Source: a virus | Lineage: Duplodnaviria > Caudoviricetes | DNA: 42,851 nucleotides | IMG/VR virus record: IMGVR_UViG_3300023313_000243 | Span: 1 to 42,851 of that record | Strand: one strand, 5' to 3' | In this document: positions 19,826-24,318 of the stretch, in pieces | Numbering within the stretch: position 1 is the first letter of the stretch | Layout: each line of letters opens with the position of its first letter | Translations under genes and position numbers: made by a program | The notes under the pieces: generated by a model | Told to the model about the DNA's origin: nothing | Database searches by the model: none | Seen by the model: only the letters and a program-made list of their open reading frames with translations

Positions 19826-20653
19826 ATTTTTTATTATTAATTTTAAATATTTTTCAGGAGTAATATTTTTTATTTCCTTTGCTAATTCGTGAATTTGAAA
19901 ATAAGCTGAATTTGAATATCTAAGATTAAAAAAGTTTTTTAAACTTCTAAGATTAATAGTAAAAACAAGTTCTGTTTTCCAATTATCTGTAACAATAGTT
20001 TTTATAAAATCACCTACATTTCTTTTACTTTTATTTTCTTTCATTTTTTCTAAAAGTAATATTTCATTATAATCTTTATTTTTACTAAATAAATTATAAT
20101 TATCTTTTCCAAGAACTTTTGAAATAAACTCATTATTTTTATTATTTGAAATAAATAAAAGTTTATTATACATTGAGTCAATTTCAATATTAATAAAGGA
20201 AATATCTGTAATAATAAATAAATCAAGATTTTTAATTAATTTTCTAAAAGTTTCCTTTGTTTTTGAAATAATAAATATATAAATTATATCGGTCATAGTA
20301 TATCTTGTACTTTTAACTGTAAAAGAAGCAATTCTATGTCTTGAAAGTTCTTGTAAAACACCTCTTGAAATATCTTTAATATAATAGGAAAGTGAAATAT
20401 GTTCAAGAACACTATGATGAAAGTGAACCCAAGCAAGTTGATGAAGTAATTTTGAACTTTTAATATTTTTTAAATTTTCAATATTTATATTTGTTAAATT
20501 ATTTTTTAAATCCTTGATTTCTTGATTTTCAGAAAATTTAAAACTATCATAAGCAGTTCTACTAGCAAATTCAGAAACACCAAATCCAGAATGATTTAAT
20601 AAATAAACTTCTGGAGTTTTATAGGTAATATTATTTAAATTATAAGTTCTCAT
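19823..20653 (-). CDS. thyX: Flavin-dependent thymidylate synthase
   Basis: HHSVLEH, SRGVLQELSRHR..SFTVKSTRY, NLRSLKNFFNLR. Confidence 0.95.
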   Translation of the reverse strand: MRTYNLNNITYKTPEVYLLNHSGFGVSEFASRTAYDSFKFSENQEIKDLKNNLTNINIENLKNIKSSKLLHQLAWVHFHHSVLEHISLSYYIKDISRGVLQELSRHRIASFTVKSTRYTMTDIIYIFIISKTKETFRKLIKNLDLFIITDISFINIEIDSMYNKLLFISNNKNNEFISKVLGKDNYNLFSKNKDYNEILLLEKMKENKSKRNVGDFIKTIVTDNWKTELVFTINLRSLKNFFNLRYSNSAYFQIHELAKEIKNITPEKYLKLIIKN

Positions 20654-20928
20654 TAAAAGTCATTCCAAGATGATTTTGGTTTTTTAATTTCTGTTTTAAC
20701 TTCCTTTATTTCTTCTTTTGCTTTTTCTTCAACTGATTTAATAATTTTTAAAGAAGTAATTTCACTTAGTTCAGAAGATGTTTCAATTTTATTTGAAATT
20801 GTTTTAAAAAATTCTGTTTTTGAAACAAGTGAAATAGCAATATTTATTAAACTATGTCTATGAATTTCATCAATCTCAGCAAGAATTGCTAGAGATTTTG
20901 GGTCAAGTTGTATTAATTTTTCTGTCAT
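20653..20928 (-). CDS. Putative ParR-like (RHH-type) adaptor
   Basis: Small gene directly after parM; strand-helix-helix N-terminus and charged tail; the call is mostly positional. Confidence 0.5.
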   Translation of the reverse strand: MTEKLIQLDPKSLAILAEIDEIHRHSLINIAISLVSKTEFFKTISNKIETSSELSEITSLKIIKSVEEKAKEEIKEVKTEIKKPKSSWNDF

Positions 20929-20944
20929 TTTTTTCCTTTATTTT

Positions 20945-21859
20945 TTATGTTAATGAATAGCCAACACAGTTTGAAAATTCATAAGGTTCATCAACAAATG
21001 AAACATTTGGTGGAAAATCAACATCTTGTAATAAATAAGCACCACCTCCACCGATTATAACAACATCTGAAATAGCAAGTAATTTTTTATCATTTACAAG
21101 AATTGAATTAAATAATTTTTTAATAAATTGATTTTTTAAATCAGTTATTTTATTTGAAACTTCAACTTGTTCTTCTCCATTATATTTAAATTTTCCTTTT
21201 ATAAAAGTTCTAATTGCTTCTTGTTCAGAAAAGGTAATTGCAAACTTATTTTCAAGATATGAAGTAAATGGTTTAATTACACTTGAAACACCGTGACCTG
21301 GATATGATTTCATATGTTTTTTAACTGGTTTACCATCAAGAAAATAAATAAGATTAATAGTATTATAACCAAGGTCAATCGAAGCAATACTATCTGGATA
21401 GTTATTATTATTTTTTTTATTAATCCAATCAAGTATCATTCCAACACCTTGAGGAATTAAAGTTGGAACTGTTTTAATTGTATTTCCATTTACAGTTATT
21501 TCAGAAATTCTTTTAATAAATTCATCTTTTTTATCCCAATCAACCATAGCAAGTCCAGTTCTGATTTCAATTGGCTTTTCTAAATCAGAAAGTTCAAATC
21601 TATTTAAAATATGATAAATTAATAAAGGTGCAAACTTTAATAAAAATTTAAATTCACTTGTTGTAAATGATTCACTTCCAACAGCTTCACTTCCAACATA
21701 ATATTTTTCTCCTTCAAAATCATAAACATTATCAGTTCCATAATTAATTCCAACATCAGAGGAAAACGAAATTGCTGTTGGAAACTTTGATACTTTATCT
21801 CCATATTTAATCTTTGCCGAGCTATAACCCAAATCAATTGAGATTACATTTTTTTCCAT
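20945..21859 (-). CDS. parM: ParM/StbA-family actin-like ATPase
   Basis: Phosphate-1 SIDLGYSSAK, connector PQG, phosphate-2 SIDLGYNT, adenosine IGGGGA. Confidence 0.9.
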   Translation of the reverse strand: MEKNVISIDLGYSSAKIKYGDKVSKFPTAISFSSDVGINYGTDNVYDFEGEKYYVGSEAVGSESFTTSEFKFLLKFAPLLIYHILNRFELSDLEKPIEIRTGLAMVDWDKKDEFIKRISEITVNGNTIKTVPTLIPQGVGMILDWINKKNNNNYPDSIASIDLGYNTINLIYFLDGKPVKKHMKSYPGHGVSSVIKPFTSYLENKFAITFSEQEAIRTFIKGKFKYNGEEQVEVSNKITDLKNQFIKKLFNSILVNDKKLLAISDVVIIGGGGAYLLQDVDFPPNVSFVDEPYEFSNCVGYSLT

Positions 21860-21881
21860 AATTATCCTTTATTTTTAATAT

Positions 21882-21973
21882 ATATAATTATATTACATAG
21901 TTACTTAACTTTTTAAAGTTTATAAATATAATTATATGTAATATACAAAAGTTAAGTAAAAATATGTTATAAT
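21882..21973. promoter_or_regulatory. Divergent promoter region with a 13-bp inverted repeat and two ATATAATTATAT palindromes (candidate operator/parC)
   Basis: TTACTTAACTTTT 21901-21913 / AAAAGTTAAGTAA 21947-21959; palindromes at 21882-21893 and 21926-21937; TATAAT on both strands. Confidence 0.6.
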
Positions 21974-23829: not shown

Positions 23830-23905
23830 AATAAAAAAAAAAATAATAAAAAACTTAAAGACATAGTTCTGTACTTTCAGGAAAATAACTTAACTTTTCC
23901 TAATC

Positions 23906-24028
23906 AATATCATCTTTTCTAACCTAAAAATCAATAATATCATCTTTTCTAACCTAAAAATCAATAATATCATCTTTTCTAACCTAAAAATCAATAATAT
24001 CATCTTTTCAAACCTAAAAATCAATAAT
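23906..24028. repeat. 4 x 30-bp tandem repeat (iteron-like)
   Basis: AATATCATCTTTTCTAACCTAAAAATCAAT at 23906, 23936, 23966 and 23996 (one mismatch in the last). Confidence 0.95.
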
Positions 24029-24100
24029 TCTTATATCAATGGTATCACTATTGATATTATATTATATATATTTTTCTCCCTTTGTTTGGCCATTATATAG

Positions 24101-24226
24101 ATTATTATTATTATTATTATTATTATTATTATTATTATTATTATTATTATTATTATTATTATTATTATTATTATTATTATTATTATTATTATTATTATTA
24201 TTATTATTATTATTATTATTATTATT
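24101..24226. repeat. Perfect (ATT)42 microsatellite
   Basis: 126 nt of uninterrupted ATT. Confidence 0.95.
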
Positions 24227-24318
24227 ACTTCTTAGAAATATAGATTATTTTTACTTCTTAGAAATATAGATTATTTTTACTTCTTAGAAATATAGATTAT
24301 TTTTACTTCTTAGAAATA
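24225..24318. repeat. 3.6 x 26-bp tandem repeat
   Basis: TTACTTCTTAGAAATATAGATTATTT at 24225, 24251, 24277, partial at 24303. Confidence 0.95.

Follow-up and report, generated by a model that had tools for sequence, protein, structure and literature searches.

A conserved actin gene pair beside a sporadic PolA-like polymerase gene in a T4-like phage contig

A prophage actin that positions phage DNA has been described (AlpAC), and the case described in lytic phages is the tubulin PhuZ. In the AlpAC/alpS system of Corynebacterium prophage CGP3, a phage actin and a DNA-binding adaptor serve efficient replication of the phage DNA (PMC4446434; here and below, statements follow the available parts of the cited papers). 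Polymerases of the TV-Pol family have a minimal family-A core of 400-600 amino acids (aa) without a proofreading nuclease, and occur in mobile elements and in phages beside the normal replicase (PMC2579912). In T4, homing endonuclease genes and gene 32 are known to have structured leaders (PMC3014915). Genes resembling these systems and the type II ParMRC loci of plasmids adjoin each other in IMG/VR record IMGVR_UViG_3300023313_000243, a single virus contig of 42,851 bases with G+C content of 20%, the whole of which is called the window here. They comprise an actin gene (304 aa, positions 20945-21859, minus strand), a 91-aa open reading frame (ORF) downstream of it (20653-20928, minus strand), and a 604-aa ORF (22015-23829, plus strand) transcribed divergently from them and followed by a repeat-rich gap.

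A reading of the sequence alone had interpreted this locus as one plasmid-like replication and partition module, with persistence of the phage as an episome or, as its second option, with actin positioning the phage DNA. The three ORFs, the two repeat arrays and the A/T run all lie where this sequence-only reading placed them. The single module did not survive comparison with relatives, as neither the 604-aa gene nor the arrays are conserved together with the actin gene. The second option is ranked best. With moderate confidence, the locus is explained as two independent elements side by side, the first a conserved pair of actin and putative adaptor that probably positions DNA while the phage grows lytically, the second a sporadic and likely mobile TV-Pol-like gene with local repeats. 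Directly supported parts are the co-conservation of the pair, the actin motifs, the fold and catalytic residues of the polymerase, and its patchy spread over multiple sites.

The actin gene and its 91-aa partner

The actin matches the Pfam families ALP_N (PF17989, E 1e-9) and MreB-like_C (PF21522, E 2e-8) and phrog_691 in library scans (Pfam, PHROG) of the 58 window proteins. Residues D9/G11, P136-Q-G, D162/G164/T167 and G271-273 are invariant in all 22 rows of an alignment of relatives, picked from at least 120 listed. Judged by sequence, the product is an actin-fold ATPase of the ParM/Alp type with intact nucleotide-binding motifs, which bears out the ParM-like assignment made earlier. Relatives were found in 40 phage records. 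Those of phages Carin-5 and YerA41 are 49% identical to the window actin, and those of Campylobacter, Rhizobium, and Vibrio phages 22-26% (Firehammervirus 24%). Plasmids gave 44 matches, the best of them 34% identical; no close relative was confirmed in a bacterial genome collection by a pattern search sensitive to close relatives only. In a tree of 27 rows, the window actin is inside a phage clade of 19 rows (support 100/99) together with Carin-5 and YerA41. The sister group of this clade, under midpoint rooting only, consists of four ParMs from Campylobacterota plasmids (87/85). It is plausible that the actin and its partner descended from a plasmid ParM/ParR pair. A Campylobacterota host of the window phage is suggested by base composition, the form of the promoters, and the nearest plasmids.

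In total, 75 actin loci (these and further loci are numbered with L below) were collected, of which 68 are distinct and 65 have an actin at least 40% identical. The 91-aa protein has no Pfam or PDB match, and its family was followed with a profile made from 26 relatives that the window protein had first recovered (27 rows in the family alignment). The family occurs within 3 kb downstream of actin in 29 of the 31 loci that have at least 3 kb of sequence there, L012 and L061 being the two without it. It was also detected in 11 of 15 whole records of related phages, including Carin-5 (E 2e-12) and YerA41 (E 2e-11), where Carin-5 00216 and YerA41 gp106 are the orthologues, both annotated as hypothetical. 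No partner was detected with the actins of the Firehammervirus, Rhizobium, and Vibrio phages (3/3 such records). The two genes are frequently separated by others, at distances of 11-2024 bp. In Carin-5 and YerA41, the pair is placed among topoisomerase, helicase, and SSB or exonuclease genes.

In the partner family, a strand-helix-helix-like N-terminus is followed by a variable linker and by a conserved acidic-aromatic C-terminal tail ending in W-D-x-F. Helices were predicted at residues 10-17, 21-36, and 39-44 in an AlphaFold2 model, with pLDDT of 86-95 for the block of residues 1-40 and low confidence in the linker; a ribbon-helix-helix N-terminus is a lead only. Genes downstream of plasmid ParMs have a similar layout. 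This likeness and the co-conservation downstream of actin agree with the earlier view of the small gene as a ParR-like partner, and its product is regarded as a putative adaptor for the actin. Its N-terminal domain would bind phage DNA and its conserved tail would recruit actin filaments, so that the pair may keep replicating genomes spaced or anchored, a role that AlpAC has in prophage CGP3.

The region between the divergent genes (21860-22014) carries two promoter-like sites of the form TTAAGT-N-TATAAT with a 13-bp element common to both, and by eye the actin genes of close relatives are preceded by a similar promoter. Neither a tandem-repeat scan nor a motif scan found a centromere-like array there. 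The centromere repeats characteristic of type II partition are missing from the actin promoter; the arrays of the window lie at a distance of 2 kb and lack conservation. Among the 75 loci, a short array is near the actin in L029 (upstream) and L065 (downstream) only.

Carriers of the pair include phages studied in lytic growth. Carin-5 is described as lytic, with a circularly permuted genome (PMC12686479). YerA41 g140, which corresponds to the actin match by gene order, belongs to the middle class in a lytic time course, peaking in the middle phase of infection (PMC7354516, Table 3). PolB was identified in seven of the 15 related records (six above the cut-off), including all three near-complete metagenomic ones, and Carin-5 and YerA41 encode a large PolA. 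Integrase and Rep3 were found in none of the 15 records, while positive controls were detected, and no Rep family was recognized by the library scans of the 58 window proteins. In the literature searched, with subscription journals outside its scope, no study characterising the actin or the partner was found.

The 604-aa polymerase, its family and the repeats behind it

No Pfam or PHROG family matches the 604-aa protein. Searches with the protein alone gave no match in phages, plasmids, viral contigs or a word-indexed protein set, and a single PDB match was at chance level and was rejected. Ten relatives were recovered by an exhaustive search. The structure model has mean pLDDT of 71 and pTM of 0.52, and the Foldseek matches listed are all family-A polymerases (best E 3.7e-4, TM 0.22-0.32). 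Six residues, R269, D293, A298, K361, H455, and D456, are invariant in 15/15 aligned family members at 19-28% identity; such conservation argues for selection for activity. In an unguided alignment, these residues fall on E. coli PolA R668, D705, E710, K758, H881, and D882, respectively, at a non-significant E of 0.085. Against single PolA sequences the profile gave E of 0.085 and 0.12, both not significant, with the E. coli score above all 30 shuffles. No exonuclease family appeared among Pfam matches of the 15 members at E up to 1. According to the model, the protein has a family-A polymerase fold with intact catalytic residues and no detected proofreading domain. It is therefore PolA-like, as first noticed from its palm motifs, and not a Rep next to iterons.

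PolA E710 is the sugar gate. The invariant alanine at this position (A298) suggests use of ribonucleotides and priming by the 604-aa protein. In the fingers motif RxxxK, K361 is invariant, and the first position is K in ten, R in two, and another residue in three of the 15 rows. Structure rows for the protein in the Atlas include viral proteins fused to D5, below the naming bar. The protein is best described as TV-Pol-like, its membership in TV-Pol not being established. No D5 helicase, resolvase, integrase or transposase was found among the scanned window proteins; neighbours in the relatives were checked by eye only.

The family is present in three of the 26 actin loci that have at least 2.5 kb upstream. 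In L023, the gene lies about 7 kb upstream of actin on the same strand; the actins of the window and L023 are 67% identical and the polymerases 25-27%. In L028, an 838-aa ORF (L028:2787-5303) is directly upstream of actin on the same strand and has the family-A polymerase domain fused to an HNH homing endonuclease domain (phrog_655/12434 type). In L014, the gene is downstream of actin (E 6e-4). A search of the 15 records found the family in G008 only, in two copies at unrelated sites of a genome that also encodes PolB. Two more copies are in other settings, with tail-sheath or unrelated genes as neighbours. Occurrence in so few actin loci, at unrelated sites and without arrays, indicates that the polymerase is not tied to the actin pair. 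The slot that it occupies in the window is bounded on one side by the actin promoter and on the other by an RlaP-type nucleotidyltransferase gene (PF10127, 24323-25276, minus strand), a conserved neighbour located 434-4096 bp upstream of actin in 13 distinct loci. This slot is variable: it holds an HNH gene or its remnant in four of the 13 relatives and a member of the polymerase family in one. Further HNH relatives were sought in the 15 records, and one new fragment was found.

In relatives, a structured leader is common to polymerase-family and HNH genes. In the 726 kb scanned, seven pseudoknots had a first stem of at least 15 bp, and one shuffle control gave one pseudoknot of any size. Four precede polymerase-family genes by 27-37 bases (L028:2678-2750, L076:1349-1400, L077:1100-1162, and L081:7893-7966), two precede HNH genes by 36-38 bases (L011:8177-8284 and L016:8811-8910), and the seventh is at a contig end (L031:1928-1989). 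They are long H-type pseudoknots with stems of 15-29 and 8-11 bp, perfectly paired though the sequences are unrelated. Neither the window nor seven loci matched any Rfam family, and the leader is absent from L082 and L014.

The 604-aa gene is thus regarded as sporadic and probably mobile. Its product would act as a self-priming primase-polymerase, and the gene would spread like a free-standing homing endonuclease cassette, having landed here in the variable slot from rlaP to the actin promoter. Some observations made by eye concern the same family. In L082, P0122, the closest homologue of the polymerase, lies between the two copies of an imperfect, roughly 50-bp direct repeat (1-52 and 1803-1860) and near a split tail-sheath gene. 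The two G008 copies have a similar promoter block upstream (L076:1187-1260 and L077:950-1030) despite very divergent proteins. The word TATAAATA upstream of polymerase-family genes was considered as a signal and rejected, as it is common (44 in the window).

Behind the polymerase gene, the gap 23830-24322 (493 bp) is the largest internal non-coding stretch, as had been noted from the letters; the next largest has 325 bp. It contains a 30-bp unit repeated 4.1 times (23906-24028, 98% matches), a short inverted repeat at 24034-24058 recognized in sequence and DNA fold, and a 26-bp unit repeated 3.9 times (24218-24318, 98% matches). Between the arrays is a 127-bp pure A/T run at 24101-24227 (the longest other A/T run in the window has 40 bp). 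It is an (ATT)42 microsatellite of uncertain true length. The two arrays and the run described earlier are present, but the run falls within the first of the 26-bp units, and for this reason it looks like a slippage expansion. Its length may have been set by the assembler, as 127 is a common assembly k-mer size. No ATT tract of at least seven units and no full-length match to the arrays were found in the 899,503 bases of 92 loci. Direct repeats and an A/T-rich element of an origin are present in form, with the tract being a microsatellite within a unit and the gap having no DnaA-box pattern. An 11-bp promoter element has three copies in the window (21903-21913, 21947-21957, and 23888-23898, the third on the minus strand), all within 2 kb, against 0.15 expected; the copies at 21947 and 23888 are in inverted orientation and bracket the polymerase gene. 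An inverted likeness between the 30-bp and 26-bp units is borderline, as it is reached in 51 of 1000 shuffled sequences and by 54 of 1000 26-mers drawn at random from the window, and it was rejected as support (p about 0.05). The arrays are local to this genome, and may be either a binding or priming site of the polymerase or leftovers of its insertion.

Both contig ends also carry long non-coding repeats, a 154-bp unit repeated 2.7 times at 6-434 and, by eye, two related copies at about 42460-42690, so that arrays are not unique to the gap on the polymerase side. They have no 12-mer in common with the internal arrays except A/T-only words. Group II Campylobacter phages are known to have long repeat regions (PMC6481058).

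Weighing the explanations of the locus

Several points weigh against two independent elements with a DNA-positioning pair. All three polymerase genes in actin loci are within about 7 kb of actin, two of them upstream, a closeness that might reflect an old linkage. Sensitivity of the search for the family is low: it missed a weak copy in G009 and the published TV-Pol of Ma-LMM01, and the absences are accordingly soft. Codon usage of the window polymerase gene is ordinary (rank 27 of 42), the gene has no pseudoknot leader, and only one of 13 branches in the polymerase-family tree is supported. The counts are also not independent, since many of the actin loci are closely related. For the partner, the comparison with the profile of plasmid ParM partners is weak (hhalign probability 27%, not significant), the ribbon-helix-helix rows of the Atlas (0.84-0.86) are below its bar, and no binding site was found in the sequence. 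This missing site, the frequent separation of the two genes, the three records with no detected partner, and the naming of the YerA41 gene as 'structural protein' in a 2020 table would also fit a role apart from DNA, in which the actin acts on the host envelope or cytoskeleton or as an assembly scaffold, with the 91-aa protein serving as a regulator or just as an autorepressor. We hold such a role to be quite improbable, given that the layout of the partner is that of plasmid ParM partners and that the Carin-5 and YerA41 pairs are surrounded by topoisomerase, helicase, and SSB or exonuclease genes.

The repeats invite two further explanations. The polymerase and the arrays could form an accessory origin owned by the phage, apart from the actin pair, where the leading strand is primed at the arrays and the ATT tract melts, with relatives using other origins. 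The selection on the catalytic residues, the order of array, hairpin, A/T run and array, the pairing of the arrays in DNA fold, and the bracketing by the 11-bp element agree with it. It is considered unlikely, as arrays follow none of the seven other family genes read (L014, L023, L028, L076, L077, L081, and L082), among which the most repeat seen is an 11-bp unit repeated 2.6 times after L077, the complementarity of the arrays is reached by the shuffles and random 26-mers given above, and a DnaA-box pattern is missing. The phage-plasmid or carrier state, where a working replicon with type II partition keeps the phage as a segregated episome, is highly improbable and is not supported. Polymerase gene and arrays do not accompany the pair in relatives, Rep3 and integrase were not found in the 15 records, the 604-aa protein is unmatched in 72,556 plasmids, the bacterial genomes gave no confirmed close actin relative within the reach of the pattern search, the pair occurs in lytically studied phages, and the actin promoter has no centromere-like array, unlike plasmid loci such as L087 (43 bp repeated 2.4 times). 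These outweigh the ParM-like actin with its small downstream partner, the plasmid ParMs as sister group, the near-perfect arrays on both sides of the A/T tract right after a polymerase-like gene, and G009, a record with direct terminal repeats that carries the pair and a weak polymerase-family gene. That the contig is a chimera, falsely joined in assembly at the low-complexity ATT tract, is extremely unlikely. Nothing comparable to this perfect microsatellite was found in the 92 loci, and a read-level bridge over it was not obtained; but rlaP and actin, one on each side of it, are neighbours in the 13 relatives, and this synteny argues against a chimera. One and the same 26-bp unit makes both edges of the tract, and contigs of run X1, possibly the source run, overlap so as to cover each of the 30 bins of 19000-24098, one of them crossing the actin-polymerase junction. 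A single run was listed as containing the DNA, registered as a metagenome of a microbial mat and perhaps its source; no RNA data set was among the listed holders. Contig depth was rejected as a measure of copy number, being flat by construction and summed over other organisms.

Beyond the two elements side by side, a wider proposal is tentative and rather doubtful. The polymerase family may represent a new class of selfish gene in large T4-like phages, a family-A primase-polymerase without proofreading that changes genomic site in the manner of a homing endonuclease, has a long pseudoknot leader in common with HNH genes, is sometimes fused to HNH, and copies its own cassette. In the window it would have an origin-like landing site beside an actin-adaptor pair used by lytic myoviruses for DNA positioning. 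Neither Pfam nor PHROG has a model of this family, and its mobile behaviour and structured RNA leader may point to a novel way for genes to spread among phages. The actin-plus-partner pair is now traced through a clade of large myoviruses, and with the partner named in cultured Carin-5 and YerA41 the question of DNA positioning is open to bench test.

Other genes of the window and comparison with known systems

The T4-like context assumed from the sequence is borne out by a T4-type terminase, neck protein, topoisomerase II, and RNA ligase. A terminal repeat was not found in the 42,851-base window, which is taken as a fragment of 42.9 kb. Downstream of the 91-aa gene is thyX (PF02511, 19823-20653, minus strand), and in relatives yqeY and other genes intervene between the two. 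The overlap of the thyX start with the stop of the 91-aa gene had been read as a sign of an integrated module. It is uninformative in this respect, since the same type of overlap occurs in 15 of the 50 same-strand neighbour pairs of the window. Four DUF285 repeat proteins (673-2722 and 5027-6313) are encoded around a GIY-YIG (SegE-type) endonuclease gene at 3920-5053. The large terminase (25505-27700) has an insert of about 150 residues (about 133-282) that is missing from the L016 homologue and looks like an intein. The set of RNA and tRNA repair genes (Pfam and PHROG; 16311-17653, 24323-25276, 29114-29836, 35176-35613, and 36576-42227) is rich, with CCA-type and Pol-beta nucleotidyltransferases, RlaP, Thg1, SmpB, an HD-kinase, and two RNA-ligase-like genes. 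Several small proteins (6310-7058, 8348-8584, 10074-10388, and 35911-36579) share a similar E-Y/F-P-E-Y-F/I-L/I ending, found also in relatives. The gaps 8585-8909 and 40658-40865 resemble minus-strand coding sequence without a called start, and are possibly small or broken genes.

Among known systems, the type II ParMRC loci with ParM/StbA of pHRV44, pCIG1485E, and C. upsaliensis plasmid 2 share with the window an actin ATPase (32-34% identical) and a next gene of about 90 aa whose product has the N-terminal strand-helix-helix pattern and an aromatic C-terminal tail. The window pair differs by its position on a T4-like phage, without an upstream repeat array, and by a partner that in phages is often uncoupled by inserted genes and whose homology is not significant. 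The same actin family includes YerA41 gp104 and Carin-5 00218 (49%) and the Firehammervirus phrog_691 members (24%), annotated as 'partition protein' or 'DnaK-like'. With AlpAC, the locus has in common a phage-encoded actin and an adaptor, here putative, that would serve phage DNA replication and not plasmid inheritance. The CGP3 prophage is integrated, and its site upstream of the operon is known; no integrase was found in the relatives of the window, and no site was found here.

The 604-aa protein resembles TV-Pol by the hairpin arginine R269 and palm aspartates D293 and D456 in a family-A fold, and by the missing proofreading nuclease. It differs in that no D5 helicase, resolvase, integrase or transposase gene is adjacent, the fingers motif of the family is mostly KxxxK, one member is fused to HNH, and the family profile finds nothing in Ma-LMM01. 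In comparison with free-standing homing endonuclease cassettes of T4-like phages, a polymerase fold is encoded, and the window copy has neither a nuclease domain nor a leader. Like these cassettes, which are sporadic, intergenic, and have a structured 5' leader (PMC3014915), the polymerase gene of the window is sporadic and occupies a slot held by HNH genes in relatives, and other members of its family have the pseudoknot leader seen before HNH genes.

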